The notes beneath the pieces were generated by a model, which was not told where the DNA came from, did no database searches, and saw only the letters and a program-made list of their open reading frames with translations. From the NCBI GenBank assembly GCA_051744345.1, contig JBNJCW010000002.1, positions 1,176 to 65,175 on the forward strand: 64,000 bases of DNA. The letters run 5' to 3'. Shown piece after piece: positions 2,538-40,393 of this stretch. A program made the translations under genes and the position numbers. The stretch comes from Actinomycetota bacterium. Lineage in GTDB: Bacteria > Actinomycetota > Humimicrobiia > Humimicrobiales > Humimicrobiaceae. The stretch's first letter is position 1. Every line of letters begins with the position of its first letter.

Positions 2538-4676
2538 CTATTTTGCTTTATTTTTCCTTGCCTTTTTATAAACAACTGTAATCCTGGTGCCCTCGCCGGG
2601 TGAACTGTCTATGTTAATCGATGCTCCTATAATCTTTGCCCGCTCTTGCATTATGTTCAATCCCAAACTTGTTGAGTCAATTTCTTCCCTCTTAAAACCC
2701 CGGCCGTCATCTTTAATATCCATGTATAATTCTCCGGGAATGGTTTTTAATATTATACTGGCATTGGCTGCTTTGGAATGTTTGATTATATTATTTATTG
2801 CTTCTTGGACAATACGGTAAAATCCAATTTCAATTTTAGGCAGAAACTTATCCTCCCCTTTTATAGTTAAGCTGATAGTGGTTTTCGATCTTGCCTCAAC
2901 CGACTTTACCAACCCCCTAAGCAGATTGCCCAGGTCCTCATCTTTAAGTGAAGCAGGCCTTAGCTCATAGAGTAAAATACGCATTTCCTCTAAGGCAATA
3001 TCATGTAAACGCTCAATTTCTCCAAGCCTTTTAGCCACAGACCCGGGATCCTTTTCCCATAATTTGGGAATAGTACCCGCAACCATGTTTGCCGAGAAAA
3101 GGGTTTGGGTTACTGTATCATGCAATTCTCTGGCCAGTTTATCCCGCTCACTGCTCAGGGCTTTTTCTTTTGCTATTTTCTTTTCCAGTTTCTCTGCTTT
3201 TTTCCTGGCAGTTACATCTGTCCCGTAGATATTGAAGTAGTTAAAATTTTTTACCGGGGTAACGGTTAACTCATAAAATGATTTAGCAATCTTTACCTCA
3301 ATCCTTTTGGGTTTATACCTGTTTTCCTTTACAGGACTTTTACTCAAACCCATTAAAGATTCCAGCAGCTTTTCCCTTCCTCTATTACCCAGCTGCCGCA
3401 GCATGTTTTTTGCCGGTTTATTTGTGTAAATTACCTTATTTTTATCATTAATTCTCATCACCGGATTGGGGTTTTCTAATGGAAACCTTGAAAGGCTCTT
3501 AATTTCTTTTTCAATTTTTTTCCTTTTGGTTATATCAGAAAATATGGTTGCAAATTTTCCCCTTGAGGGAGAAAAAACAGACACTGAAAAATATTTTTTC
3601 ATAGGAGGAAAATAGGCTTCAAACTTGGCGGGCTTCCCTGTTTTTAGGACCTTTTCATAAACACCCAGGTAAGGAGCTATATCCGTCCTGTAAACTTCGG
3701 AAGCCTTTTTCCCAATAACCTGGCTCCTTTCAAGTCCCATAATGCCTAGATAGGCATGGTTAACATCAAGAATCCTGTAATCTACCGGCTTCTTTGACTT
3801 ATCGTATATCATTTCCTGCAAACAGACTGCTTCATTCATGGAAAAATAGAGCGAACGGAATTTTTCTTCGCTTTCTTTTATTTCCTTTTCCCTCTGTCTT
3901 AATTTAAAAAACAGTAAATCCATGGGCTGGGAAAAACCTGTTTCTACAATGGCTTTATAAATCAGGAAAAAAGATAAAAGCTTAAGAAAATGGCCCAGCT
4001 GGTTAAACAAACCATACACATCACTATACAGGGTAAAAAACATCTCCGATAAGATAGTTATAAACAGTGAAACAACAATCAGCCTGAAAACCGTTCTGTT
4101 GAATTCCTTGCGGTACATATGGAGGAATAATATTGCCATTGCCAGCATAAAAGATATTATATATTCGCTGGCAATTTTAAATGTGGTAAGGCCATGTCCT
4201 TCTACAAAGCATACAGGGAATATTTCCCAGTAAAAAATCGATAACAGAATCAAAGCAGTGGCAGCCGAATAAAAGGTAACCTGCAGTTTGTAATTTAACC
4301 TTCTGGTTATAAACAGCAGGGCCAGAAGCATTGAGATGCTTTCCACATATCTTGCAGAAATCCAGAGCTGGGTTGCCAGGTTGGACTCAACATAGCCTGT
4401 AAACACCCCCATTCCCTCATAGGCCAGGGTATGCAGTAAATCCAGTACGGCTATAAAAAAGTAGGCTATGCCGGCAAACAAAAGGAAGTGGTTATCCAAA
4501 AACCTTTTTGAGTTCCAGGCAATGATAAATATTGCAAAGGCAATTACAATGCTGAACAATTCTGCAAAACTGTGGTACAGGACATAGCTGTACAGGCTTA
4601 TAAGGTATAGGCCCGCAAGTGATAACAGTCCCAGAATGATAGTTGCGTAATTTCTTTTAAAAAAAGGCCCTATCAA
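2538..4676 (-). CDS. Membrane sensor histidine kinase (multi-TM N-terminus, PAS domains, HisKA_3, HATPase_c)
   Basis: About 250 aa of hydrophobic helices and PAS-like repeats. NarL-type H-box ELHDTVTQTLFSANM. C-terminal GxGxG ATPase motifs (DDGRGF, GLNIMQERA). Confidence 0.85.
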   Translation of the reverse strand: MIGPFFKRNYATIILGLLSLAGLYLISLYSYVLYHSFAELFSIVIAFAIFIIAWNSKRFLDNHFLLFAGIAYFFIAVLDLLHTLAYEGMGVFTGYVESNLATQLWISARYVESISMLLALLFITRRLNYKLQVTFYSAATALILLSIFYWEIFPVCFVEGHGLTTFKIASEYIISFMLAMAILFLHMYRKEFNRTVFRLIVVSLFITILSEMFFTLYSDVYGLFNQLGHFLKLLSFFLIYKAIVETGFSQPMDLLFFKLRQREKEIKESEEKFRSLYFSMNEAVCLQEMIYDKSKKPVDYRILDVNHAYLGIMGLERSQVIGKKASEVYRTDIAPYLGVYEKVLKTGKPAKFEAYFPPMKKYFSVSVFSPSRGKFATIFSDITKRKKIEKEIKSLSRFPLENPNPVMRINDKNKVIYTNKPAKNMLRQLGNRGREKLLESLMGLSKSPVKENRYKPKRIEVKIAKSFYELTVTPVKNFNYFNIYGTDVTARKKAEKLEKKIAKEKALSSERDKLARELHDTVTQTLFSANMVAGTIPKLWEKDPGSVAKRLGEIERLHDIALEEMRILLYELRPASLKDEDLGNLLRGLVKSVEARSKTTISLTIKGEDKFLPKIEIGFYRIVQEAINNIIKHSKAANASIILKTIPGELYMDIKDDGRGFKREEIDSTSLGLNIMQERAKIIGASINIDSSPGEGTRITVVYKKARKNKAK

Positions 4677-6522: not shown

Positions 6523-7662
6523 TTACACAGGGTACCGGGCAATAAATGTAGTGCCGTGCTCAGGGGAACTGTCAAAATCAATGCGGCCGTTAAGGTAACG
6601 TTCACTCAAAAGTTTCATGCTGTAAGTACCCAGACCCCGGCCGGGCCCTTTGGTTGAGAATGAGCGCTGAAAAAGCTGAAGCTGAAGCTCTTTGGGAATA
6701 TATCCTTTATTATGGACACGGAATTCAGCATAACCCTCCTTAACCCCGCACGAAACCCTTATAGCCTCGTCAGGTTTACTCGCTTCTACAGCATTAAGGA
6801 CCATATTTTCCAGGACCCGGCGCAGAAGCTCTCTATCGGCACTCAATATAATGTCTGTCCCCGGCCTGTTTACAATTATTTTGCGCCCACGGAAACGGTT
6901 CCTGAGTGCTTGAGCCAAATCCTTGACGAGCAAATATCCATCGACAGCCTGCATCTTGGGTACAAGCTCATTGTTTTCTGCCGCCAGCAGTTCCTTTTGA
7001 GAGCGTATTTCATCCATTAATTGATTTAATCCAATAAGTAGTTTTTGCCAGTGGCTATTATTCCTGATACCTTCCGGACTTGAATCAAGCATATTTGCAA
7101 ATAGGTTTATGCCGGCAGCGGTATTCATTAAGTCATGGAAAAAAATATGTTCAAGCGCCTGCCTGCGTTTTTCATGGCTTATGTCAGTAATAGCAATAAT
7201 GCTGAATAGCCGGCCTTTAATTTTAAGAGGGGTCGTTCGGATTAAGAGGTCCAGTGCTTCGGTACTGTCCTTTTTCAGCACCCTGCATTCCTGTAGGCCA
7301 GCTTTATTGTTAAGTGCTGAAAGTATCGCATTAACCGCACCGCATTGCGAGCAATATTCGCTGGTGCCGCAGCCCCCGGGATTTTCACAGGCATAGACGC
7401 ATCCCAGTGCTTCGCCAGGCCGCAAACCATATATGCTGTCATGATCCTTAAACCCCAGCAGCAGAGGAGCAGCTGAATTGAAGAATATGATTTGCCTATT
7501 ATCATTTACTATAAAAATCATCTCTGAAACAGCATTATAGAGCTGGCCGAGGGAACCATTATATTCTGCCAGGAGTTTCTTCTGGTATTCAATTGTCATC
7601 CTGTCGCTTCGGTGAGCTGGTGCATACTGACTGGCAAAATTTTCAGACTTCAATAAGGCCAC
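6523..7662 (-). CDS. Cytoplasmic sensor histidine kinase with Cys-rich PAS-like sensor
   Basis: H-box HDLMNTAAGINLFANML and HATPase (GRGLGTYSMKLL). Sensor region has the Cys cluster CVYACENPGGCGTSEYCSQC. Confidence 0.75.
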   Translation of the reverse strand: MALLKSENFASQYAPAHRSDRMTIEYQKKLLAEYNGSLGQLYNAVSEMIFIVNDNRQIIFFNSAAPLLLGFKDHDSIYGLRPGEALGCVYACENPGGCGTSEYCSQCGAVNAILSALNNKAGLQECRVLKKDSTEALDLLIRTTPLKIKGRLFSIIAITDISHEKRRQALEHIFFHDLMNTAAGINLFANMLDSSPEGIRNNSHWQKLLIGLNQLMDEIRSQKELLAAENNELVPKMQAVDGYLLVKDLAQALRNRFRGRKIIVNRPGTDIILSADRELLRRVLENMVLNAVEASKPDEAIRVSCGVKEGYAEFRVHNKGYIPKELQLQLFQRSFSTKGPGRGLGTYSMKLLSERYLNGRIDFDSSPEHGTTFIARYPV

Positions 7663-7874
7663 CCCGCTTTAAAATATGCTACAGGTAACTATAGTATTAG
7701 TTTATATATCCCGTATTTTAAGTCAAGAAATTTAATATCCCTGTCCTTATGACCAGTTAAAACCCGTACTTTTTGAATCTGCAAACTATACATACTGCCG
7801 TTATACTCTTATCTGTTACCCCTTATAATCACCATATAAACATTTTAATTTATAAACATAAAGGATGATATCAA

Positions 7875-13307: not shown

Positions 13308-14435
13308 CTATGTCAGATAATCTAGATAATTATCTCCGTTTATCACATGGAATTCCGAACGAGGATAGGTATTAATAAAATCCCTGGGAACTTTTACTCC
13401 CTTTTTTGAATACTTGCATTCAAAGGCAAACAGCTTTCCTTCCCGTTCCTCTATAAGGTCTATTTCTTTCTTATCATAGGTTCGCCAAAAATAATTATTA
13501 GATGATAACTTTTTGTATCTTTGGTATTTAACCCTTTCAGAAATACAATAGTTTTCCCAGAGTCTTCCGACATCGTCCCTGAGATTAAGACGGTTATAGT
13601 TAGAAATCAAAGAATTAAGTATTCCGTTATCCCAGAAATAATACCTTGGGCTTTTGGTATATTCTTTTCTTAAATTTCTACTGAAACCATGGTGGGAAAA
13701 CACCACATAACTTTTTTCCAGCAACTCCAGGTATCTCATAACAGTTCTTTTGTTTACATTCAGGTTTGATGCCAGCTCTGAATAAGAAACATCCTGTCCT
13801 ATCTGGAAAGCTATAAGCCGGAGAAGATTGAATATAAAAATACTGTCTTTAAGATTATCAAGTTCTAGAATATCTTTTAAAAGATATCCATCACGTATTG
13901 ATTCTAATTCTGCCTTCTTCTGGTCCAAGGTTTCAGCTAAATATACCTGTGGATAAAAACCATAAATAAGCTGTTCTTCCAACATTTCTTTTTGCCTTAT
14001 GTAGTCCTCTATTCCTACCTCCAGCAATGCCAGAGGGTACAGGTAATAATACCGGCTTCGTCCCACCAGTGGTTCACCTACTTTATTTCTTAGGTCAAGA
14101 CTGGAGGATCCGGTGATAAAAACTGAAACATTCTGAATTGTGTCTACTATTAATTTAAGGTTTGATCCAATATTGGGAATTTTCTGTGCTTCGTCTACAA
14201 AAAGATACTTATTAACCCCTATGAATCTCTTCAGTACTCCAGTTCGCTGGCTTGACAATGCTTCAGCTGCATCAAGGTTTTCACCATTAACCATAATTAT
14301 TTCGCTGCTACCTATTTTTCCTTTAATCAAGTTCATTAGAACCGTTTTTCCAGCTCTTCGGGGTCCAAAAACACCTACTACCCTGGAAGGCTTTAGGTCT
14401 TTTACCACCTGATTTGTAATATATCTGGATATCAT
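13308..14435 (-). CDS. AAA-family ATPase with DUF4143 C-terminal domain
   Basis: Walker A GPRRAGKT, Walker B-like FVDEAQ, and C-terminal YFWDNGILN block. Confidence 0.7.
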   Translation of the reverse strand: MISRYITNQVVKDLKPSRVVGVFGPRRAGKTVLMNLIKGKIGSSEIIMVNGENLDAAEALSSQRTGVLKRFIGVNKYLFVDEAQKIPNIGSNLKLIVDTIQNVSVFITGSSSLDLRNKVGEPLVGRSRYYYLYPLALLEVGIEDYIRQKEMLEEQLIYGFYPQVYLAETLDQKKAELESIRDGYLLKDILELDNLKDSIFIFNLLRLIAFQIGQDVSYSELASNLNVNKRTVMRYLELLEKSYVVFSHHGFSRNLRKEYTKSPRYYFWDNGILNSLISNYNRLNLRDDVGRLWENYCISERVKYQRYKKLSSNNYFWRTYDKKEIDLIEEREGKLFAFECKYSKKGVKVPRDFINTYPRSEFHVINGDNYLDYLT

Positions 14436-16518: not shown

Positions 16519-16813
16519 AATAAATCACTCCTTCTTTAAAACTTTTTTTAAAGTCTAATTAAGTATAATCTTTGAGCACCATAATAATAACCTTAGTTTG
16601 ACTAGTTTTATCCTAATAATTAGACCAGTTTAGAGATAAATACGCTTCAGTTTTTTAAGAATCGTCTAATTTAATAATTTTGAAATTAGCATTTATATTC
16701 TGGCCGTTTGTTGATAAGGTAATAATAATTAGACTTTTCCTAGTTATTCCATCCCTTTATTATTTACATTAATTGATTGAATATTTTTCATTTATGTGAG
16801 GTAAATATCTGAA

Positions 16814-16858
16814 AGAGGGCCCTAATGTTTGAAATTTCGAACCAATTTTTTAAAAGAG
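16814..16858 (+). repeat. tRNA-Asn-3'-end-like repeat copy
   Basis: gagggccctaatgtttgaaatttcgaaccaattttttaaaagagg. Confidence 0.6.
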
Positions 16859-17455
16859 GTTATTTTAAGTTATTACAATTATTCTGAGCTTAATAGCCTG
16901 GGTTCTCTCCAGTACAATAATTTCCTTAATTAAAAGAAATAAAAAAACATGCAAGACAGCTTGAAGAACAACCATAAAAAAAGAATGAAGACAAACTGCG
17001 CTATTTCATCATCTATTAGCTGAGTTCCCAAAACATTAAACCACCGTATACTTGATTTTGACTCCAGCTGCAAATATAAAATGCTGGAAGGAAAGTTACT
17101 AAAAATGTTTTCAAATAAGGAAAATAAAAACGCTCAATACCTATAGCCCAATCAAGCACAAGAAGTGTGGCTGTTTTAATAATATAACTCTGCCGGAATT
17201 TAGCCATAACCCTTCCCATCTGATTGTTTATAAATATTTATATGGCTTAGAAGCAATTCTTTACAGTATTAGAGTTGGCTGGGGAGGGAAAACTAGAATC
17301 ATAAATAAAATATTTAAATAATTGTATCATTTAAAGTACCAATAATAATTTTTGAGATAGCTCACCATCTGCTACAGTGATAGAAATAATTTATTGAACT
17401 CAATTGGAGATATTTATACCAGAATAGAGTTTTTAAAAAGAAATATTTTTAAAAC

Positions 17456-17500: not shown

Positions 17501-19312
17501 TTATACTTTTGAAACTTTTTTGCTTCGCTTTGCTTCAAGTTCCGATAAAGCTATTTTCCTGATACGTACTGATTGAGGTGTGATTTCTACAAGTTCAGTT
17601 TCATCGATATATTCAAGGGCATCGTCGAGACCAATATTCTTTGGTACATTAAAATGTTCCATACTGCCCTCACCCTTAGAGCGCATATTTGAAAGCTGCT
17701 TTTCCTTACACACATTTACCCATATATCTTCCCGCCTGGAGTTCTGGCCTACTACCTGTCCCTTATAAACACTTATTCCCGGACCATAAAATAAGTCACC
17801 CCTGTCCTGCACATTGGTCAATCCATATAATCTTGTAATCCCGGTCTCATGTGCGACCAGCGAACCTCTTTCACGTTCCTCCCATTCACCTTTTTCCGGA
17901 AGATACCCATGAAAAAGGTTATTCATTATTCCAAGACCCCTGGTATCTGTCATGAATTCCCGTCTGTAACCAAAAAGTCCGCTGGTAGGTATAATAAATT
18001 CAAGATAAGCTATACCCTTTTTCTTTTCCATTTTTTTCATGATTCCATAACGGCCTCCAAGCTTTTGGATTACAGCACCAGAATATTCTTCAGGGACCTC
18101 AATAAATACTTCTTCATAAGGTATGTGTTTTATCCCTGCTATAATCTTTATGATTACCTGCGGCTGTGAAACCTGCAATTCGAACCCTTCACGCCTGAGC
18201 CTTTCAATAAAAATAGCAAGGTGGAGCTCACCCCTGCCTAATACTGTCCATCCACTGGTACTATTTTCCTCAATTCTCATAGCCACATCATTCTCAAGCT
18301 CTTTATATAGTCTTTTCCTTATTTGTCTTGAAGTTGTAAATTGACCTTCCTTGCCTGCAAACGGCGATGTATTGACAGAAAAAGTCATTTTTACCGTAGG
18401 TTCTTCAATTTTTATCAGTGGCAATGCGACTGGATTTTCAATATCAGCAACTGTCTCACCAATCATTATATCAGGGATTCCTGCGATACTAACTATTGAA
18501 CCTGCTTTAGCTTCATCTATCTCATATTGTGCAAGTCCCTGAAAAGTCATCAATGAACTCAGACGGTATCTTTTCAGATGGCCTTCCCGGTTTATCTGCA
18601 TGACTTCCTGTCCTGCCTGTATTTTTCCATTATATATTTTTCCAGTTGCAACACGGCCTTTATAATTGTCCCAGTTAACTGATGTTACCAGCATCTGAAG
18701 AGGTTTTTCAGCATCCCCGGCAGGTACAGGTATATAGCTGATTATTTCGTCAAATAGAGGAGCGATGTCATTCATCCTGTTTAACTCAGGATAAAGAGCT
18801 GATTTACCCATTTTAGATGAAGTATAGACAACAGGAAAATCTGCTGTGGCTTCATCAGCTCCCAAATCTATAAAAAGGTCAAAGGTATTATTTAAAGCTT
18901 TGTCTATATTGGCATTAGGCTTATCTATTTTATTAATCACAACTATTATTTTATGTTTAAGTTCAAGTGCTTTTTTCAGCACGAAACGTGTCTGCGGCAT
19001 TGGTCCCTCCTGTGCATCTACCAGCAGAAGTGAACCTTCGGCCATCTTCAACACTCTTTCCACCTCTCCACCAAAATCTGCATGTCCTGGCGTATCTATA
19101 ATATTTATCTTTATTCCACGCCAGACCACAGAAGCATTTTTAGAAAAAATGGTTATGCCTCGTTCCCTCTCAATCTCATTGCTGTCCATTATACATTCCG
19201 ATAATGCAATTTCCTTATTGAGTTTTGTCTTTGACTGACGAAGCAAAGAATCCACGAGAGTAGTTTTGCCATGGTCAACGTGTGCGATTATTGCTATATT
19301 TCTAATTTCCAT
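17501..19312 (-). CDS. typA: Translational GTPase TypA/BipA
   Basis: IRNIAIIAHVDHGKTTLVD G1 motif, DTPGHADF. 603 aa EF-G-like architecture. Confidence 0.95.
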   Translation of the reverse strand: MEIRNIAIIAHVDHGKTTLVDSLLRQSKTKLNKEIALSECIMDSNEIERERGITIFSKNASVVWRGIKINIIDTPGHADFGGEVERVLKMAEGSLLLVDAQEGPMPQTRFVLKKALELKHKIIVVINKIDKPNANIDKALNNTFDLFIDLGADEATADFPVVYTSSKMGKSALYPELNRMNDIAPLFDEIISYIPVPAGDAEKPLQMLVTSVNWDNYKGRVATGKIYNGKIQAGQEVMQINREGHLKRYRLSSLMTFQGLAQYEIDEAKAGSIVSIAGIPDIMIGETVADIENPVALPLIKIEEPTVKMTFSVNTSPFAGKEGQFTTSRQIRKRLYKELENDVAMRIEENSTSGWTVLGRGELHLAIFIERLRREGFELQVSQPQVIIKIIAGIKHIPYEEVFIEVPEEYSGAVIQKLGGRYGIMKKMEKKKGIAYLEFIIPTSGLFGYRREFMTDTRGLGIMNNLFHGYLPEKGEWEERERGSLVAHETGITRLYGLTNVQDRGDLFYGPGISVYKGQVVGQNSRREDIWVNVCKEKQLSNMRSKGEGSMEHFNVPKNIGLDDALEYIDETELVEITPQSVRIRKIALSELEAKRSKKVSKV

Positions 19313-19648: not shown

Positions 19649-20107
19649 TTAAGTGAACCACATAGGAATAAATAATACAGTTGTATTTTCTATTATTCTT
19701 TTGCACCAAAAGCCTTTGGTCAGTATTAAGCCTCTAGGAAGGTTATATCTGTTTATAAAACTTCTAAAGCTTCTGCTGGTTCTAGCTGCATTTAGAGAAG
19801 AATATTTAACCTCGATAGACATTAATCCATTTTCTGTTTTCATGACAAAATCTACTTCAGCTTTATGAATAGTCCTCCAGTACCTTAACCCTTTTTGCCC
19901 CTTTTTTAGAAGGTTTGAGAAAACTGCATTTTCAGCCAGACTGCCAGAGTCTACTCTTAAATTTAGAAGGTTATAATTATTGACAGCCCTATTTCTTAAC
20001 CCTGTATCCAAGAAATATATTTTTGGGTTTTTCTTTATTTCTGAAGCAAGGTTGGTCCAAAAACTATCTATCCTACCTGCTGCAAACGCTTCACTACCAA
20101 CAATCAT
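19649..20107 (-). pseudogene. C-terminal fragment of a DUF4143/AAA ATPase (truncated paralog of 13308-14435)
   Basis: The block IYFLDTGLRNRAVNNYNLLNLRVDSGSLAENAV aligns to the C-terminus of ORF 13308..14435. No ATPase domain upstream. Confidence 0.5.
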
Positions 20108-22616: not shown

Positions 22617-22850
22617 TTAAGAAACCTTCTCAAGGCGTTCTGCCACCCAGACTTTAATAATAGATTGTCTTGGCACGCCTAGCCTTTTAGCTTCTTTATC
22701 CAATAGATTAATCATCCATAAAGGAAAATCGACATTAACCCTTTTTTTCACCTGCCCTGGTCTTTTTGCCTTGGATATATCAAGGTATCTAGATATGTCC
22801 TTATTTTCATCAAATTCTTTATCGAAATCATGAGCATTCATAAATATCAA
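22617..22850 (-). CDS. brnA: BrnA antitoxin (type II TA)
   Basis: C-terminal GVPRQSIIKVWVAERL resembles the BrnA RHH-like motif. Immediately downstream of brnT. Confidence 0.7.
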   Translation of the reverse strand: MIFMNAHDFDKEFDENKDISRYLDISKAKRPGQVKKRVNVDFPLWMINLLDKEAKRLGVPRQSIIKVWVAERLEKVS

Positions 22851-22875
22851 TTTCCTCCTTTCTTGACCTCCGTAC

Positions 22876-23121
22876 TTAAATTATTCTTATATTTTTACTT
22901 CGGTATGTTATAACAGCAGAATAATGTTTTTCCGATATTTTTCCGATTACCACTGACCTTTCCTCATCACTGGTCCTTACCGGTATCTCGATAAAATCTG
23001 TATCATCCCATAGTTTTTGTGTTTCGCAAAAATCAATGCCATGCTTCTTCTTATTGCTATTACTTTTTCTCTTATCGAATTCAAATTCCAAGGTATATTT
23101 ATTATACCTATTATATACCAT
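22876..23121 (-). CDS. brnT: BrnT toxin (DUF497 ribonuclease)
   Basis: LEFEFDKRKSNSNKKKHGIDFCE matches the DUF497 FEWD..K...N..KHG..F.E signature. Confidence 0.7.
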   Translation of the reverse strand: MVYNRYNKYTLEFEFDKRKSNSNKKKHGIDFCETQKLWDDTDFIEIPVRTSDEERSVVIGKISEKHYSAVITYRSKNIRII

Positions 23122-23192: not shown

Positions 23193-23410
23193 GGCCGATA
23201 GCTCCCTCTAGTGGACATATTTCGAATTTTTTATTTTAATGAAACGAGTACTTTAGAAGATAAATTAGATAGAATTAACACCATTTTTGTATTCCCATAA
23301 TCAAGAGTTTTATTTTCTAAGCCTCTTTATTGAAGATTTTAGGTCCATTTACCAAAAATTTACAATATAAATATAATATATTGACATCATAAAAATTTAT
23401 TTATATAAGG
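23193..23410 (+). repeat. Long direct repeat R1 (about 215 bp), near-identical to R2 at 36418-36632
   Basis: Aligns at about 95% identity with 36418..36632. Begins with the tRNA-3'-end-like core (agctccctctagtggacatatttcgaa). Confidence 0.85.
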
Positions 23411-23650: not shown

Positions 23651-23696
23651 CTCCCAGTATCATAGTGGACATATTTCGAACTTATTTTTTTATTTG
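23651..23696 (+). repeat. Degenerate tRNA-Asn-3'-end-like repeat copy
   Basis: catagtggacatatttcgaacttattttttatttg matches the cores of R1 and R2 and the 35413 copy. Confidence 0.6.
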
Positions 23697-26785: not shown

Positions 26786-28137
26786 TCAATCTTCATTTTC
26801 ATAACCGCCCCAGAAGCTCCGTTTCCTTTTATGTTCATTATAAATCCGTTCCTTGAATATCAAATGATCCTCAAAGTCTTTCCAATCAGAGACCCTTACC
26901 GCCATTTTATCCAGTTTTTTAAGGTAGCGGATACCGTGGTAATATGCTTTTGAATATCTCCGATCCAGAATTGAGAACAGGAGGCTCCTGTAAATAACAC
27001 TCGCTGCAAGGAAACGCCCCTCTGACTCCATTAATTTTACTAAATTAAGAAGGCCTGTATAATGATCCCCATCAAGCTGTCCGGCCCTATTAATAATATA
27101 TTCCTCTGCTTCATCGATCTTTGCGATTCATTAAGAACTGAGCATCATTCAGGCTTAACCTGTCATTTGAAACTATGGAAGCCACTGCCTCTGATAAAAC
27201 TTCATCCCTTTTCCCAGCCCCGATAACATTCAGTAACTCCTGAAGTCTTTCTGTAGAATGATAAGATCTGAATCTTTTATAGAGAAGATCTATCAATTTA
27301 TCCTTATAGCCAGGCTTTTGATAGATCTTTACCAAAAGCTCCTCTGCCTCATACTTCCGTAATGAATCATCTTCGGGAATCTTTTTCAACCATGAAAGAG
27401 CGGTTTCTGCATCACCACTTTTAAAAATATACACAGGCAATATCATATAATGCAGCTGCTGATAGTTTTTCACTGGAAGCAACCTGTATTTGCTTAAAGA
27501 GCTCTGCGTCTTTTATCTGCCGCGCCAATGATCCGACAAGGCCCAGGTAATGCCGTCTCCAGCGGCTCCCCTCTCCACTATCGGCCAGTTCCTGGATCTT
27601 ATCGATCATGGACCGGATCATTTTTTCAGGCAGGCATTCCGAAGCGCAGTCAATCAGTGTATCCCTTATCCCGTAATCATCATTCCTGTTAAGCTCAAGT
27701 ATGATGCCAGCAACTTTTTCCTTGTCTTCGCATTCTGCCGCATACCTGGTAAATAATTCTTTTGCATCATAACAAAATATATCCCCTATATTGCCGCTGG
27801 AATCGTCGCATTGATTAAATATCTCCTCATCTGCCTTATAGAAAAGCGAGATAAGCTCAAGACCCGTAGAGGGGTCCTTAACTCCTGCCCTCAGGTCTTC
27901 CAGCAATTCCCCAAGCTTTTGGGCAAAATCTTCGGATTCATTCCACTCATAAAAATGCCTGGACCTTTTTATCCCGGACAGCTTCTTTTTGAACCGCTGT
28001 ATATTCTCTTCAGGACCGGAGATCATGCGCTCAACCAGGTTATCTGCAGTATCGGACCATTCTGCAAGTTCCAGCAGCGCATCTGCCAGGGTTTCGGCTC
28101 CCAGGTCTGTTAATTTTTGTCTGCGTTTGTCTTCCAT
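26786..28137 (-). pseudogene. Hypothetical protein gene disrupted by a frameshift (about 440 aa if fused)
   Basis: ORFs 27421..28137 and 27111..27482 overlap by 62 nt. Removing one A from the A5 run at 27423-27427 fuses ...DIACVYF to KSGDAETALSW.... A third ORF, 26786..27031, continues in another frame. Confidence 0.45.
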
Positions 28138-29555: not shown

Positions 29556-29765
29556 AAAAACAGAAATCCTTGCTTACTAATCATCAATATTTATCTGATT
29601 TAGAAATTCCTTTATTTTTATCATATCATCATTACAAAATCTTCCTATCTTTCTTTTATTTTTTCAGAGATCTCGTCAATCGAAGCATCAATCTTGTCGT
29701 TGGGATTTAATATTTTTTTTTGATAAACAGTATTATATTTTTGATATAAATTATTCCCAATAATT

Positions 29766-30188
29766 GAAAAGAAGAAATCAAAGATTGAGGATCTTGTAAT
29801 TGATGGTACCTTTGACAGAATGACATACTCCAAGAAAAAAAATGAAATTGAGACTGATATTATATCAAAGAAAACTGAGTTATGAGATTATGAAAATGGA
29901 TTAATAGATATATATCAGTTAATTGAATACGGAAAGAAATTTTTATTTAATCTATCAAATTTATGGCTTAATTTAGATACTGATAAAAAAAGAAAATTTC
30001 AAAATGTGCTATTTCCTGAAGGTATTTACATTGAAAATGATAAGTTTCGAACCACCGAAATAGCCAGCATTTTTAAGTTTTTCAGAGATTATAATTTTGA
30101 AGAATCAAACTTGGCTCCCCTAAGTAGTGAAACTTCGAACCTTTTTTTGAAAGTATTATTACGGTTAAAGGAAATTGATGTTATATAA
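29766..30188 (+). pseudogene. C-terminal remnant of a large serine recombinase, with an in-frame stop
   Basis: Translation ...IDGTFDRMTYSKKKNEIETDIISKKTEL*DYENGLIDIYQLIEYGKKFLFNLSNLWLNLDTDKKRKFQNVLFPEGIYIEND... resembles TP901/SpoIVCA-type integrase C-terminal tails. No catalytic domain upstream. Confidence 0.4.
30111..30153 (+). repeat. tRNA-Asn-3'-end-like repeat copy (inside the recombinase remnant)
   Basis: ttggctcccctaagtagtgaaacttcgaacctttttttgaaag. Confidence 0.6.
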
Positions 30189-30376
30189 ATTGAAACAGAA
30201 CAAACAGCGAATCGAAAGATTTTACAAAGTAAACGGTACAAACATAAAGAAATTGTGAAGAGAAGCTCCAACATAATGATCTAAAGGATTGGAACTTTTT
30301 CTCTTATTTATTATATTAAGCTTGAAATTTAAAAAGTTTTTGCTATGAATGTATAATGTTACCCTGGTTATTTCTA

Positions 30377-31435: not shown

Positions 31436-32494
31436 TAGGGGGTAGTCAGTTTGCTCCACCTAATAAACTATGTTCAATTGCTTCCCCAATTGTAACCATA
31501 AGTTACATCATCCTCGACAATTGGCCCGGTAACAAATACTTGTTCCAAAAGTCTTCTAAAAACAAGTGCACGGCTAAGAGAAGTACACCTATTGAACCGA
31601 AATGTAAACTCCTCCAAGTAAAATTGCAAATGGCCGGGAATGACTGAACCTTGATGGGTACCGAGGTTCCACCGCTTAAGCAAGCTTGGAACTCGATAAA
31701 CACCTGGCATAGAGACATGGGAAGGATCCCCAGAAGATGAGAGCACAGTAACTTTTCACCTGTATTCCCATGTTCTGGCACCCTGTTGCAACCACGCCAC
31801 CCATCAGTGTGTATCAACGCTCCAGAAACTACCACATTACATATAAATGGTAGAAGACTTTCACCAGAAGTATCCGGAACATGGCGCATACGCACTCTTC
31901 CAAATCCTTTGGGTTGCTTGATCTCTACAGCAATAGCCACAATACTTTTAGTAGTGCCACGGTCTCGTTTGCCACCACCAACTAAAGCTTCATCCACTTC
32001 CACATCGCCTGATAATTGTTTACTTTTAAGCGTCTACCATCGCCGCCCTAAAACGCTGTAGCATTGTCCATACTACTCGGTAGCTTGTACCCAGAGCACA
32101 CCCTAAGGTTTTAGCCGATAATTCCGCTCTTAGCCATGGTTACGTGCCAAGCTGCCTCAAACCAAATCGTTAGCAGTGTTCTTGTTTTATCAAAGATTGT
32201 TCCTGTAGTCACTGATGCCTGATGGCGACAAATTGGACAAGCCAATCGGTCCAAGGCTTTCCTTCCATGGAACTGAAGACTTTTTGCATGATGGACAGAT
32301 AAATCCTTCAGGCCAAAGCAATTTTGACAAGAAATTCGCACAGGCAATGTCGTCAGAAAGCATTTCCACAAATCCCCGGTAAGTATTCGAGTAGTCAAAT
32401 CCTTCAACTAATGCCAATTTCAATATTTCTTTGCTCATTATGAATGTTTCTCTATTCATTTTAGCAGAGGTGGAGCTAATTGACCTCCCTCCCC
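31436..32494 (-). mobile_element. Degenerate IS1595-family insertion sequence (frameshifted transposase)
   Basis: Overlapping minus-strand ORFs encode an N-terminal Zn ribbon (WPEGFICPSCKKSS; LACPICRHQ...TGTIFDKTRTLLTIWFEAAWHV) and an ISXO2-like DDE region (EVDEALVGGGKRDRGTTKSIVAIAVE). GC is elevated and the termini share GCTCCACCT inverted ends. Confidence 0.55.
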
Positions 32495-32600: not shown

Positions 32601-32660
32601 TGGCTCCCCCAAGTAATGAAATTTCGAACCAATTTATGAATGAAATGATTAAATTAAAAG
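32601..32660 (+). repeat. tRNA-Asn-3'-end-like repeat copy
   Basis: tggctcccccaagtaatgaaatttcgaaccaatttatgaatgaaatgattaaattaaaagg. Confidence 0.7.
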
Positions 32661-34752: not shown

Positions 34753-34813
34753 TGGCTCCCCCAACAGATGAAATTTCGAACCAATTTCTTAATGAATTAT
34801 TAAAGTTGAAAAT
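34753..34813 (+). repeat. tRNA-Asn-3'-end-like repeat copy
   Basis: tggctcccccaacagatgaaatttcgaaccaatttcttaatgaattattaaagttgaaaat. About 80% identical to the 32601 copy. Confidence 0.7.
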
Positions 34814-34883
34814 AAATTTTATGCAGTAATTGACAAAAAGTATATTATTTAGTACTATTTAAAGTACTAAAAGGAGTATTATT

Positions 34884-35412: not shown

Positions 35413-35454
35413 CTGGCTCCCCCTAGTGGACATATTTCGAACTTTTTATTTTGA
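35413..35454 (+). repeat. tRNA-Asn-3'-end-like repeat copy
   Basis: ctggctccccctagtggacatatttcgaactttttattttga. Preceded by aaatttgc, which is identical to the tRNA flank. Confidence 0.75.
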
Positions 35455-36417: not shown

Positions 36418-36632
36418 CATGGCTCCCCCTAGTGGACATATTCCGAACTTTTTATTTTAATGAAACCAGTACTTTAGAAGATAAATTAGATAGAATTAAC
36501 ACTATTTTTGTATTCCCATAATCAAGAGTTTTATTTTGTAAGCCTCTTTATTGAAGGTTTTAAACCCATTTCCCAAAAATTTACAATATAAAGATAATAT
36601 ATTGACATCATAAATTTATTTTATATAATTAT
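36418..36632 (+). repeat. Long direct repeat R2 (about 215 bp), carrying a sigma70-like promoter for brnT-brnA
   Basis: About 95% identical to 23193..23410. Ends with TTGACA, 17 nt, then TATAAT about 8 nt before the brnT ATG. Confidence 0.85.
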
Positions 36633-36635
36633 TTT

Positions 36636-36902
36636 ATGATAATCTATGATAAAAATAAGGCCATAAAATTAAGATATGAGCGCAATATTGAGATTGAAGA
36701 CATCTTAGATATCATTATTCATAAAAAATATTTAGATATATTAGAACATCCAAAAAGAGCGGGACAGCAAATTTTCATTCTTGAATATAGAGATTATATA
36801 CATGTTGTACCTTTTGTTATTGATAATGACAACAACATTATAATAAAAACAGTATTCCCCAGCAGGAATTTTCATAAGATATATAAGGAGGAATTAAAAT
36901 GA
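36636..36902 (+). CDS. BrnT-like toxin (DUF497/DUF4258-like)
   Basis: 88-aa protein with C-terminal IIIKTVFPSRNFHKIY resembling BrnT RIISARKA...Y. Overlaps the downstream BrnA-like gene. Confidence 0.5.
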   Translation: MIIYDKNKAIKLRYERNIEIEDILDIIIHKKYLDILEHPKRAGQQIFILEYRDYIHVVPFVIDNDNNIIIKTVFPSRNFHKIYKEELK

Positions 36903-37189
36903 AATATGAATTAGATACAGATGAAAAGATTATTGAAAGAGAAGCAACAGAATATAAAAAAGTTTCTGAAGAGAAAAAGAAAAATATCGAGTCAGTTTTA
37001 GAAAGAAGTTCAAAAAAAAGAGTTGTGACTCTAAGACTTAATAATAATGATCTTGAGCAATTAAAATCCATTGCAAATATCGAAGGTATCCCCTATCAGA
37101 CATTAATATCAAGCATACTACATAAGTATATCAATGACAGATTTGTTGATAAAAAAGAAGTATTTAAGATTTCAGAATTATTGAAATGA
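36899..37189 (+). CDS. BrnA-like antitoxin
   Basis: RVVTLRLNNNDLEQLKSIANIEGIPYQTLISSILHKYI matches the BrnA C-terminal RHH-like motif (VPYQSLIK). Confidence 0.55.
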   Translation: MKYELDTDEKIIEREATEYKKVSEEKKKNIESVLERSSKKRVVTLRLNNNDLEQLKSIANIEGIPYQTLISSILHKYINDRFVDKKEVFKISELLK

Positions 37190-37196
37190 AATTTGC

Positions 37197-37271
<75 letters not shown>

Positions 37272-37339: not shown

Positions 37340-38449
37340 TCAGGTTTCCAGGAAATCTTTCAATGCACCGCTTCTGTTTGGATGCCTTAACTTGCTTAAA
37401 GTCTTGGATTCTATTTGCCTAATTCTTTCCCTGGTAACACCAAACTCACGCCCTACCTCTTCCAGAGTTCTGGGATGTCCGTCCTGCAGCCCAAATCTTA
37501 ACTGTATAACCTTCCTCTCCCTTTCATTGAGAGTGTTTAGGACATCCTGAAGCTGCTCCTGCAGCAAGGTAAAGGAGGCCGCATCCGATGGAGCCTCAAC
37601 CTCGGAATCCTCAATAAAATCCCCCAGGTGACTGTCTTCTTCCTCTCCTATTGGGGTCTCCAGTGATACAGGTTCCTGCGAAATCTTCATTATTTCCCTT
37701 ACCTTATCTGGAGAAAAGTCCATCTGCTTGGCAATCTCTTCAGGAACAGGCTCCCTGCCCAGCTTCTGCAGCAACTGCCTTTGAATCCTGATTAATTTAT
37801 TTATGGTCTCTACCATATGGACAGGAATCCTTATGGTCCTTGCCTGATCAGCAATAGCTCTGGTAATTGCCTGCCTGATCCACCAGGTAGCATAGGTTGA
37901 AAACTTGTATCCCTTGGTATGGTCAAACTTCTCTACAGCCCTTATAAGGCCAAGATTTCCTTCCTGTATAAGGTCAAGAAACAGCATGCCCCTTCCAACA
38001 TATTTCTTGGCAATGCTTACAACCAGCCTTAAATTTGCCTCAACCAGCTTTCTCTTTGCTGCCATATCACCTTTTTTTATCCTTTTGGCCAGCTGTACTT
38101 CTTCAACTGCAGTAAGAAGCCTTACTTTACCTATTTCCTTAAGGTACATCCTTACAGGATCATTAGTAGGAGATTTTATAGTAAGGTCTAACTTTTTCTT
38201 TAAAGCATCTTCTTGTTTTTTACTCCTGCTTATAACATCAAGGTCTTCATCTTCTTCGCTGATAATCTCTATACCAAGGTTTTGCAGTACATCATATATA
38301 TTTTCTATCTGTTCCTTGGTGAGATCCACCTCAGATAAAGCTTCTCCTATCTCTTCAGTAGTCAGAAGCCCTTCTTCCTTGCCCTTGCTTATAAGGGCTT
38401 TCACTTCATCTAACTTGAATTCAGCTCCTCTTTTCATTATTTCTATCAC
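37340..38449 (-). CDS. sigA: RNA polymerase primary sigma factor RpoD/SigA
   Basis: Regions 1.2 to 4 present: [24 protein letters not shown], and region 4 [20 protein letters not shown]. Confidence 0.95.
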
Positions 38450-38506: not shown

Positions 38507-40393
38507 TCAAGTAATTTTCTCTGCCATTGCTTGTTCCACCAGCTTTATATGCTTCTGGCACAGCTGATTATACTTTTGCTGGATTTCAGTTCCGGTTTCC
38601 CCTTTTTTCTTCCTCTCTTCTATTTTTAACATCTCTGACCTGATTCTGTCAATTTCCTGTAAGAGATTGACCAATTTTAAATTTTTCAGTACTTCTTTAC
38701 AATTCACCCTGCCGTTTTTATAAGGTTTAGAATCAAAATAAATGGTATTGTAAAGTTTCTGTACCGCCTCTTCTTCTAAATAATCTGACGTTATTTCTAC
38801 GGGAAAGTTTATTTTTTTAGATGCCTTCCTGTAGTCTGTAATCAATTTGCTTAATATATTAAATAACTTTCTAGTATCCTCGAACCTGAAGTAACTTTCA
38901 TCCAGTCCCAAAAAACATCCATCTGTTAATCCTTCGCCGTTTATCATAAGCCTAAGCGCTTCAATTTCCAGCTTCTTGTAAGGTGCTTCATTTTTTTCCG
39001 GCAGTTTTCCGCCGGGGGTATGTGTATTTTTTTTACTACTGCTTCCCATCTTAACCAGTTCTTCAAACAGCAGGCTTTCTTTTAAATCAAGTTTTCTGGA
39101 AACTTTTTTTATGCATTCTTCCTGTATTATTTTGGAAGAGAGGGTAAGAATAAATTTCAGCAGCTCATTGCTGGCCCTCAGTTTGCCGTTGATATTGGAA
39201 ATATCATGCTTCTTCATTATAGTATCCAGGGTAAAATCAATTATGTTTTCCGCCTGCCTGACCTGGTCCAGGAAAGCACTGCTCCCCCTTTTAAAAGTAT
39301 AATCTGCAGGATCATAACCCTTCTCCAGAATCGCTACCTCTATGCTCATATTGTTTTCATTAAAAAGGTCTAACCTATGGTTGTATTCCTTAAGCCTATC
39401 CATTCCCTTAAGTGATGCAGACATTCCTGCCTGGTCGCTGTCAAAAACAAGAACTATATTCTGGGTAAACCTGCCCAAAAGTTTTATCTGCTCGGAGGTT
39501 AAAGCAGTTCCCAGGCTGGCAACAACATTTTGGATACCATTCTGGAAAAGAGCCATTACATCGGTATAGCCTTCCACAATCAATGCCCTGTTCTGCTCAA
39601 CTATAGCATTTTTAGCCCTGTATATATTATATATATTCTTGCTTTTAGAATAGAGTTTTGTTTCGGGTGTGTTTATGTATTTGGCTGACTGCCTGTCAGC
39701 CCCCGGGTTTAATATCCTTGCTCCAAAACCAATGGTTTTGCCCACTACGTCTTCTATGGGAAACATTATCCTTCCCCTGAACCGGTCATATATCTCCTGC
39801 CTTCCCTTTTTGCTTTTTATGGCCATTCCGGCTTCTATAAGTTCCGTAGGGCTGTAATTCCTTTTCCGGGCAAAACTGCAAAACTGCTCCCAGCTGTTCA
39901 GGCTGTAGCCTACCTGAAACCGCTCAATGGTCTTCTTGTTAAAACCTCTGTTTTCCAGGTACTCTAAGGCTGCACCACCGGCTTTGGAATTAAACAATAC
40001 ATAATGGTAGTATTTTTTGGCAAGCTCATTTAAATCCAGCAGCTTTTCCTTGAATTTTCTTGATGTAGAGGACTCCCGTGTGCTATATGTAAGCTTATAG
40101 CCTGTCTTATTGGCTAAAAACTCTACCGCTTCCAAAAACTCCATATTCTCTATTTTCATAAGAAAACTTATAACATCTCCGCCTTCTCCGCAGCCAAAAC
40201 AGTGGTACAGCTGCTTGATTGAATCAACAGTAAAAGATGGAGTTTTTTCCTGGTGAAAAGGGCATAGACCTACGAAATTCTTGCCTCTTTTTTTCAGGCT
40301 TACATATCCGCCTATTACATCAGCAATGTCCGATCTGGTTTTAAGTTCTTCTACTTCACCTTCTTTAAGGCTTTTAGACATAGCTTCTCCCAC
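38507..40393 (-). CDS. dnaG: DNA primase DnaG
   Basis: N-terminal zinc ribbon CPFHQEKTPSF...CFGCG and TOPRIM motifs (EGYTDV, VLVFDSD). Confidence 0.95.
   Translation of the reverse strand: MGEAMSKSLKEGEVEELKTRSDIADVIGGYVSLKKRGKNFVGLCPFHQEKTPSFTVDSIKQLYHCFGCGEGGDVISFLMKIENMEFLEAVEFLANKTGYKLTYSTRESSTSRKFKEKLLDLNELAKKYYHYVLFNSKAGGAALEYLENRGFNKKTIERFQVGYSLNSWEQFCSFARKRNYSPTELIEAGMAIKSKKGRQEIYDRFRGRIMFPIEDVVGKTIGFGARILNPGADRQSAKYINTPETKLYSKSKNIYNIYRAKNAIVEQNRALIVEGYTDVMALFQNGIQNVVASLGTALTSEQIKLLGRFTQNIVLVFDSDQAGMSASLKGMDRLKEYNHRLDLFNENNMSIEVAILEKGYDPADYTFKRGSSAFLDQVRQAENIIDFTLDTIMKKHDISNINGKLRASNELLKFILTLSSKIIQEECIKKVSRKLDLKESLLFEELVKMGSSSKKNTHTPGGKLPEKNEAPYKKLEIEALRLMINGEGLTDGCFLGLDESYFRFEDTRKLFNILSKLITDYRKASKKINFPVEITSDYLEEEAVQKLYNTIYFDSKPYKNGRVNCKEVLKNLKLVNLLQEIDRIRSEMLKIEERKKKGETGTEIQQKYNQLCQKHIKLVEQAMAEKIT

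Follow-up and report, generated by a model that had tools for sequence, protein, structure and literature searches.

How does a short repeat that resembles the 3′ end of a tRNA gene come to lie inside the reading frame of a recombinase, and to recur several times in the low-GC DNA beside that tRNA gene? The question is raised by the 64-kb stretch of Actinomycetota DNA analysed here (the window), in which a plus-strand frame ending at 30188 carries one copy of such a repeat and other copies are scattered to the left of a tRNA-Asn gene. Our answer, which we consider likely, is that the array was built by successive insertions at tRNA-Asn by one family of large serine recombinases (LSRs), and that 29763-30188 is the dead end of an integrase gene. 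An earlier interpretation, made from the letters of the DNA and a list of its open reading frames (ORFs) and referred to below as the sequence-only reading, had already gone part of this way.

Identity and decay of the reading frame

The frame is open on the plus strand from 29745 to 30185 save for one in-frame TGA (29883-29885), and it closes with a TAA at 30186-30188. The sequence-only reading had described this frame and its peptide correctly. It had also assigned the frame to the C-terminal tail of a large serine recombinase with no catalytic domain upstream, and both points were borne out by homology searches. With the remnant as query, phmmer was run exhaustively on 1.84 billion cluster representatives and returned 672 matches at E ≤ 1e-3, 61 of them at E ≤ 1e-10 (best 4.6e-37), which cover residues ~370-500 of proteins 490-530 amino acids (aa) in length. 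Resolvase and Zn_ribbon_recom domains are present in all seven of the full-length matches scanned for domains, and a Recombinase domain in six. Among the homologues, Recombinase (PF07508) and the zinc ribbon (PF13408) were seen in P0004, P0033, P0040, P0049, P0084, P0085, L002 and L010 (numbers with P denote homologous proteins, those with L related loci). An intact close relative of 500 aa is encoded at L002:1929-3431; its DNA is 78% identical to window positions 29758-30053 (296 nt), and the protein matches the integrase family phrog_95 at 5e-94 as well as the solved A118 and TP901-1 integrases. The 142-aa translation of the remnant itself gave no match in Pfam and NCBIfam scans and, in a PHROGs scan, only a weak match to phrog_95 (E 0.12). 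A word-indexed protein search and a tblastn search of phage records with the remnant were without a match, and a scan of viral contigs found no relative of it.

When ten family proteins were compared by tblastn with the whole 64 kb, the sole match was 29763-30197 (P0004, E 6e-32). The same search found no window match for the first ~365 LSR residues and no Resolvase catalytic domain with its serine nucleophile, and neither the Recombinase (PF07508) nor the zinc-ribbon (PF13408) domain was found in the window by domain scan or tblastn. Whether of DNA or of protein, every alignment to a relative has its left end at window positions 29758-29763. Residues 367-472 of P0004 align without a break across the TGA to window positions 29763-30080 (56% identity), and the residue that corresponds to the TGA is Ser or Asn in homologues, so that the TGA is to be regarded as a point nonsense mutation.

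The segment 29763-30188 thus represents the C-terminal ~140 codons, or last quarter, of an LSR gene for a protein of ~500 aa. Because the catalytic and DNA-binding domains are missing, the 5′ edge is abrupt and the TGA stands where homologues have Ser or Asn, we classify the feature as a 5′-truncated, nonsense-mutated LSR pseudogene, a remnant and not a functional member of the family. Seen from the window alone, there is nothing unusual about such a dead gene in an island beside a tRNA.

Geometry of the repeats and of the tRNA end

As the sequence-only reading had seen, the repeat core lies inside the coding remnant: at 30112-30140, TGGCTCCCC...TTCGAAC is in frame and encodes LAPLSSETSN. The likeness of the repeat to a tRNA end, which that reading had also remarked upon, is real, but in its details the repeat is better taken as a half-site mimic, at a constant offset of 5 bp, than as a copied piece of the tRNA. 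The true tRNA-Asn end reads TGGCTCCCC GAGTAGGA TTCGAACC, with 8 nt between the two blocks, whereas clean copies of the repeat consist of TGGCTCCCC, 13 nt and TTCGAAC(C), at which point the similarity to the tRNA ends. Spacings of 7, 8, 9, 12, 13 and 14 nt were scanned in the window and in eleven related loci. The 13-nt spacing is found in all ten exact copies (five in the window, two in L001 and three in L006), every one of them on the plus strand; one copy in L007 has 14 nt, and the 8-nt spacing occurs only in the tRNA and at the L002 junction. Copies in L004 have only TGGCT of the core in common.

Within the window, GGCTCCCC-N13-TTCGAA is present seven times when up to two mismatches are allowed, against 0.36 expected, and six of these occurrences are on the plus strand between 23.2 and 36.5 kb. 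A repeat finder distinguishes two sequence subtypes, 30112/32601/34753 and 35414/36420/23199; the exact 43-nt string around the 30112 repeat is unique in the window. The units between copies measure 6.9, 2.5, 2.2, 0.66, 1.0 and 0.78 kb. Coordinates are collected in Table 1.

In serine integrases, attB has the motif of the zinc-ribbon domain 5 bp nearer its centre than attP does (Rutherford et al. 2013, PMC3783163). The same shift is found here in the right-hand half-site, the one compared: 13 against 8 nt in this array, and 17 against 12 nt in a second subfamily described below. Since this constant 5-nt difference is the published serine-integrase geometry and is unlike the decay of a tRNA fragment, the repeat copies are best read as candidate P′ arms that derive from elements, and the tRNA end as the B′ arm of the host. 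By analogy, TTCGAAC would be the zinc-ribbon-domain motif. The crossover probably falls inside TGGCTCCCC, within TGGCT(CCCC), because this is the stretch shared between the two types of site and because the L004 copies keep TGGCT alone. We had also considered whether the 30112 site is an inverted repeat, though an imperfect one (TTTGAAGAATCA / TGAAACTTCGAA), which would have placed the crossover at 30117/30118; this was dropped, its dyad symmetry being that of the background, and an exact-seed search reported no inverted repeat at 30112.

Other observations concern the array. A 196-nt duplication with 93% identity (23198-23393 / 36419-36614) takes in a P′ arm together with what follows it, and BrnT/BrnA-type toxin-antitoxin pairs adjoin both duplicate copies, at 22617-23121 (-) and 36636-37189 (+). 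A further degenerate P′-like copy (…GGGCCCTAATGTTTGAAATTTCGAACCAATTTTTT…) is found at 16813-16860 (+), to the left of typA.

Table 1. Positions of the integrase remnant, the repeat copies and the tRNA-Asn gene in the window
Feature	Position	Strand	Remarks
LSR pseudogene remnant, part 5′ of the attachment core	29763-30111	+	Residues ~367-485 of ~500-aa homologues; ~1.1 kb of the 5′ part of the gene gone
Shared core TGGCTCCCC	30112-30120	+	Complement of the tRNA-Asn 3′ end GGGGAGCCA; only stretch identical between copies and tRNA end
Putative P′ half-site and integrase tail	30121-30188	+	TTCGAAC at 30134-30140 (13 nt past GGCTCCCC), then tail SNLFLKVLLRLKEIDVI and stop 30186-30188
P′-type copy	32601-32659	+	Tail codons LAPPSNEISNQFMNEMIKLK; no recombinase sequence 5′ of copy
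P′-type copy	34753-34829	+	Tail codons (V)APPTDEISNQFLNELLKLKINFMQ, then stop; no recombinase sequence 5′ of copy
P′-type copy, second subtype	35414-35442	+	TGGCTCCCCCTAGTGGACATATTTCGAAC
P′-type copy, second subtype	36420-36448	+	
Degenerate P′-type copy	23199-23227	+	TAGCTCCCTCTAGTGGACATATTTCGAAT; partial copy without core at ~23664-23688
tRNA-Asn (GTT), intact	37197-37271	-	Single tRNA gene of the window; Rfam 74 bits
Putative host-type (B′) half-site, tRNA-Asn 3′ end	37197-37220	read on +	TTCGAAC 8 nt past GGCTCCCC

The integrase frame across the attachment site in relatives

In relatives, the same integrase ORFs go on either into a tRNA gene or into a P′ arm and tail, which places the crossover inside the ORF. 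L001 is a syntenic locus (dnaG-rpoD-tRNA-Asn) in a metagenome-assembled genome of an Actinomycetota bacterium and has 68-76% DNA identity to the window. Its N-truncated LSR ORF runs directly into tRNA-Asn and ends ...SNLAPRVGLEPTTLRLTAECSTIELSG, an antisense translation of that tRNA. P′-type copies lie 3.7 and 7.2 kb upstream, and joining the L001 integrase end to the nearer arm would give the tail ...LAPPGCEISNQFLRDIINLK, of the same type as that of the window. The sequence-only reading had pointed to an intact homologue adjacent to tRNA-Asn as something to be looked for; the window contains none, and L001 offers the N-truncated gene just described.

Other relatives read into tRNA-Met (L013, L014, L019, L020 and L022), tRNA-Leu (L012 and L017) or tRNA-Gln (L010). 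The tRNA-Met subfamily includes two forms of one ORF, identical up to ...ESHLV. The tRNA form (L013, L014, L019, L022) continues with AGTGLEPVTFGL and reaches TCGAAC after 12 nt; the P′ form (L021, L025, L027) continues with DNSIEISNIS... and reaches it after 17 nt. The difference is again 5 nt, in an independent subfamily with another target. Two contigs, L023 and L024, break exactly at the tRNA-Met integrase junction (…CATTTAGTAG). These ends, together with L019/L022 as against L021/L025/L027, suggest that both junction forms coexist in the sampled populations.

Both types of ending are common among the best 150 homologues, where antisense-tRNA tails ([LMV][AV]xxxG[FILV]EP) number 33-49, depending on the pattern, and P-type tails ([LMV][AV]x6[SW]N...) about 19-21; both start a median of 19 residues past the conserved FRT motif. 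The integrase remnants are graded in length (303, 144, 140, 92 and 37 aa, that of the window being ~140 aa and the others those of L001, L004, L005/L011 and L006), and none of them has lost the 3′ end, which agrees with deletion advancing step by step from the 5′ side.

Several relatives show additional features. The integrases of L002 and L003, intact or nearly so, enter a 25-nt stretch like a tRNA 3′ end with the 8-nt spacing (L002:3388-3431, L003:2974-3009), after which the sequences diverge; the stretch may be a pseudo-attB or a truncated tRNA. At L002:301-1951, an XRE-type regulator gene precedes the integrase, and a rolling-circle Rep gene (REP_ORF2-G2P, with a weak RepSA match) lies upstream on the opposite strand. 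This Rep is of the ORF2/G2P type, a family named for replication proteins of small single-stranded DNA elements. The arrangement suggests a small replicative integrative element; the L002 contig ends 3 kb upstream. At L006:8820-8933, an LSR remnant is joined at the conserved E-F-R-T codons (GAATTTCGAACC) straight to a P′-type tail, a fusion that looks like a deletion between two copies of TTTCGAACC. The FRT codons of the integrase resemble the site motif; their instance in the window is at 30046-30054.

The C-terminal tail

The ten codons past TCGAAC lie outside the tRNA-like part of the repeat and beyond the ~25-bp reach of an attP half-site. In 15 copies from five genomes, pairwise differences at codon positions 1, 2 and 3 amount to 403, 252 and 544, respectively, a pattern which shows that the tail is a real peptide under selection at the protein level. 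Tail positions 2, 3, 6, 7 and 9 are hydrophobic in 12 to 15 of the 15 copies and position 10 is Lys or Arg in 14. The alternative that the sequence-only reading had itself raised, namely that the tails are mere antisense translations of tRNA-like sequence, does not hold against this codon pattern and the conserved hydrophobic and basic positions. That reading was right that related peptides, LAPPSNEISNQFMNEMIKLK and (V)APPTDEISNQFLNELLKLK, are encoded in the equivalent frame at 32601 and 34753; the two tails differ by two synonymous and three conservative changes. Its proposal that the 3′ end of a recombinase gene overlaps the attachment core stands. The accompanying idea that the other copies are further decayed versions of such a gene probably does not, as no recombinase sequence lies upstream of them. 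Tails of the same type terminate distant full-length homologues. As the tails differ between copies, the copies come from different elements.

An AlphaFold model of window positions 29889-30185, built with the family alignment, has a mean predicted local distance difference test score (pLDDT) of 80, and of 76-79 over the tail blocks. It comprises three helices, a hairpin, another helix, a low-confidence linker encoded by the core and a terminal helix (residues 80-95) that corresponds to the tail. Foldseek retrieved no PDB structure similar to the model at E < 1, and the modelled C-terminal region of ~100 aa, which follows the coiled coil, may be a family-specific domain.

Proposed history of the array

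The low-GC island to the left of tRNA-Asn, which spans at least 23.2-37.2 kb, would be the product of successive site-specific insertions by elements of one LSR family. The elements would use the 3′ end of the tRNA gene as attB. Each would carry its integrase gene at the tRNA-side end of the element, pointing towards the tRNA, with the attP crossover ~25-30 codons before the integrase stop. After integration, the tRNA junction would consist of the integrase gene, the core and the tRNA, and the ORF would read antisense into the tRNA; the far junction would lead from the flank through the core into the P′ arm and on to the final integrase codons, now orphaned. The junction at 30112, which has an integrase 3′ end to the left and a P′ arm to the right, would then record the insertion of a later element between an older integrase gene and the tRNA. 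The copies at 32601, 34753, 35414, 36420 and, in degenerate form, 23199 would be further P′ junction scars, each heading a unit of one or two cargo genes, and they are probably the left-junction (far-junction) scars of separate insertions. We infer the order of insertion, and the loss of the integrase genes from the other units by deletion.

A number of observations weigh against this history. Integrase sequence is kept at only one of the six junctions in the window, and its repeated clean loss from very short units is an ad hoc assumption. The left flanks of the other copies are AT-rich and unrelated, with neither a common motif nor one like a P arm. A dyad scan of the attP-like site at 30112 gave at best 12 of 26 matches, against a background mean of 12.3. 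No tRNA gene was detected at the integrase junction of L002 or L003, neither an attB-empty nor a circular form was obtained for a close relative, and the crossover is bracketed only. To our knowledge, an attR-like site is not accepted as a partner for attP by canonical (textbook) serine integrases, so that repeated insertion at an already occupied tRNA is not predicted by the textbook mechanism.

The same array could have been produced in other ways. An array of repeats beside a tRNA gene in a low-GC island is the classical signature (PMC4383910; the tycheposon model) of tyrosine-integrase islands, and the copies have TGGCTCCCC and TTCGAACC in common with the tRNA end; they might therefore be decayed and displaced tRNA-Asn 3′ fragments, whose overlap with an LSR frame is incidental. 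We consider this very unlikely. The identity between tRNA and copies is just 9 + 8 nt split by the extra 5 nt, with none past TTCGAACC, which falls short of a near-exact tRNA copy, and Rfam detected nothing tRNA-like where the copies lie. A constant insertion is not to be expected from independent decay, yet the extra 5 nt recur in every clean copy in three genomes. Moreover, the LSR frame crosses the core in the window as well as in relatives directed at four tRNA species, the codons past the tRNA-like part are under protein selection, and a scan of ORFs between 6.5 and 37.2 kb, which did not take in every small one, gave no Phage_integrase domain. It is scarcely credible, in turn, that a functional small protein is still made from 29766-30188, by read-through of the TGA or from a GTG at 30006. 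An intact 60-aa ORF (30006-30188) does exist and the C-terminal region folds confidently in silico, at the pLDDT of 80 given above; but the catalytic, Recombinase and zinc-ribbon domains are missing from the frame, homology starts abruptly at 29758-29763 with no start codon context, and the long ORFs of the window use standard stops, so that recoding of TGA is not indicated. Nor would a conserved small gene be expected to vary in length as the truncated remnants of the relatives do.

A working platform is a third possibility, in which the units are integrase-less cassettes, comparable to pseudo-SCC (staphylococcal cassette chromosome) or integron cassettes, that are moved in trans by an LSR of the family encoded elsewhere. 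The size of the units (0.66-2.5 kb) and their content of one or two accessory genes (aldo-keto reductase, major facilitator superfamily (MFS) transporter, Phd/RelE, DUF3800, BrnT/BrnA) would suit such cassettes. So would L004, with four copies ~1 kb apart and single genes after copies (epimerase, DUF2087, GNAT), and the differing tails, which imply units of different sources, at a place where one junction only retains integrase sequence. A cassette circle, however, needs a P-type left arm, and the left flanks share no motif and are unlike an integrase 3′ end. The graded remnants, all with their 3′ end, fit progressive deletion instead; no intact LSR lies within the 64-kb window, and no circular cassette or empty-site variant was found. 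We regard this explanation as unlikely.

The members of this LSR family might form a group specialised for tRNA 3′ ends in which the position of attP inside the integrase's own gene acts as a switch. The free element would encode an integrase with a conserved amphipathic helix, integration would replace this helix by an arbitrary antisense-tRNA tail, and the swap would change the activity or the directionality of the integrase. Orphaned P′ arms would seed arrays of small cargo units, perhaps still movable in trans, as a serine-recombinase counterpart of a cassette platform. Taken jointly, the switch, the tail swap and the trans-movable arrays make a tentative proposal that we think rather doubtful.

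Gene content of the island

To the right of tRNA-Asn lie rpoD (37340-38449) and dnaG (38507-40393). Together with typA, these genes mark the window as bacterial and ruled out the archaeal (methanogen) origin considered at first. GC content is 0.27-0.41 from ~12 to 38 kb and 0.43-0.49 past 40 kb. As typA is located at 17501-19312, either the island passes beyond typA or typA is itself in acquired DNA. The accessory genes to the left of the tRNA encode a REase-ARP nuclease, DUF6880, PRiA4_ORF3 and SEC-C proteins, an aldo-keto reductase, an MFS transporter, a Phd/RelE-type pair, a DUF3800 protein and two BrnT/BrnA-type pairs.

Some of these and neighbouring genes are themselves damaged. The DUF6880-family gene (26786-28137, -) is split into ORFs 26786-27031, 27111-27482 and 27421-28137 and is probably frameshifted. 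An IS1595/ISXO2-like transposase gene (31474-32459, -) is a pseudogene, broken up into a number of overlapping ORFs; the corresponding L001 island has an intact relative of 301 aa (6846-7751). The low-GC region also includes an intact AAA_14/DUF4143 ATPase gene (13308-14435, -) and a truncated DUF4143 copy (19649-20107, -), and a DUF4143-like fragment was recognised by inspection in the L001 island (L001:6067-6513).

In L004, P′-type copies occur at 3803, 4983, 5992 and 6743. Their acceptor-like cores differ (TGGCTGGCC, GACTGCCCC, TGGCTAGGG and TGGCTGGGC), and GTTACGAAATTTCGAACC and integrase-tail codons are common to all four. Each of the first three is followed by one gene, for the epimerase, the DUF2087 protein and the GNAT protein. 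The L004 array looks cassette-like, and its differing cores look hard to reconcile with the repeated use of one tRNA.

Comparison with known systems

The relatives described here have the same Resolvase, Recombinase and zinc-ribbon architecture as integrases of the A118/TP901-1/phiC31/Bxb1 type, and the same 5-bp shift of the outer motif, as in the LI integrase (PMC3783163). Unlike these systems, the family targets tRNA genes at their 3′ end, the ORF spans the crossover so that integration would replace the last ~25 codons, and the C-terminal region of ~100 aa, which may be family-specific, has no PDB fold match; the copy in the window is dead. The use of tRNA genes by serine recombinases was called unknown in the Islander paper (PMC4383910) and is described as rare elsewhere, examples being phiRSM1 and eight mycobacterial AICEs (actinomycete integrative and conjugative elements; Ghinet et al. 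2011, PMC3218068). In phiRSM1 (tRNA-Ser) and the Mycobacterium AICEs (tRNA-Leu), serine recombinases likewise act at a tRNA 3′ end (PMC3218068). The phiRSM enzyme is small and resolvase-like, unlike the LSR family studied here.

SCCmec and other SCC elements, whose recombinases are the CcrAB LSRs, insert at the 3′ end of a conserved gene (rlmH/orfX) and form tandem units between short direct repeats. SCC arrays include units without a recombinase, and the ccr genes are internal to the element, without reaching across its attachment site. The array in the window resembles composite SCC islands in its serine recombinase, its location at a conserved-gene 3′ end and its tandem, repeat-bounded units, some of which have no recombinase. 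It differs in that the target is tRNA-Asn and not rlmH, there is no Ccr-type pair, the only LSR is a remnant and the repeats appear to be P′-type half-sites that encode an integrase tail.

An attachment site inside the integrase gene is a feature of IntP of the Myxococcus phage Mx8 and of SSV-type archaeal integrases, in which integration changes or splits the protein. For Mx8, the title of Tojo (1996), as cited in PMC4383910, speaks of an altered C-terminal region of IntP. The family described here is similar in that the crossover falls within the integrase ORF and integration would alter the protein. The Mx8 and SSV enzymes, in contrast, are tyrosine recombinases with long identity cores, whereas here the homologues have a Resolvase domain, as serine recombinases do, and the sites share a common core of 5-9 nt between non-identical arms. 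In a non-exhaustive search of the literature we found no description of an integrase ORF spanning attP for serine integrases.

According to the tycheposon model for Prochlorococcus (bioRxiv 10.1101/2020.12.28.424599), new elements arriving at a tRNA push older, degenerating ones outward, and the island retains integrase fragments and partial attachment sites. The recombinases of tycheposons are tyrosine enzymes, and genuine tRNA fragments make up their repeats, unlike those of the present array. As for integron cassette arrays (IntI and attC), the boundary repeats here are, by inspection, like LSR half-sites and not like attC, and no IntI-like match turned up among the window ORFs tested.

Significance

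For this genome the result is a matter of bookkeeping: it accounts for the array of repeats next to tRNA-Asn and for the low-GC island there. The family is of wider interest. It comprises hundreds of LSR clusters, and a sizeable share of the best 150 matches, about a third, read into tRNA genes, a class of target long said to be unused by serine integrases or rare among them. Its behaviour, with tRNA targets and an ORF that runs across its own attachment site, is a rare variant among serine integrases. It provides a clean natural illustration of the 5-bp rule that relates attP to attB, and the tRNA 3′ ends that it uses offer new, short and predictable attB sites for the building of integrase tools. 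The family also raises the question of whether the swap of the C-terminal tail on integration may serve to control directionality.

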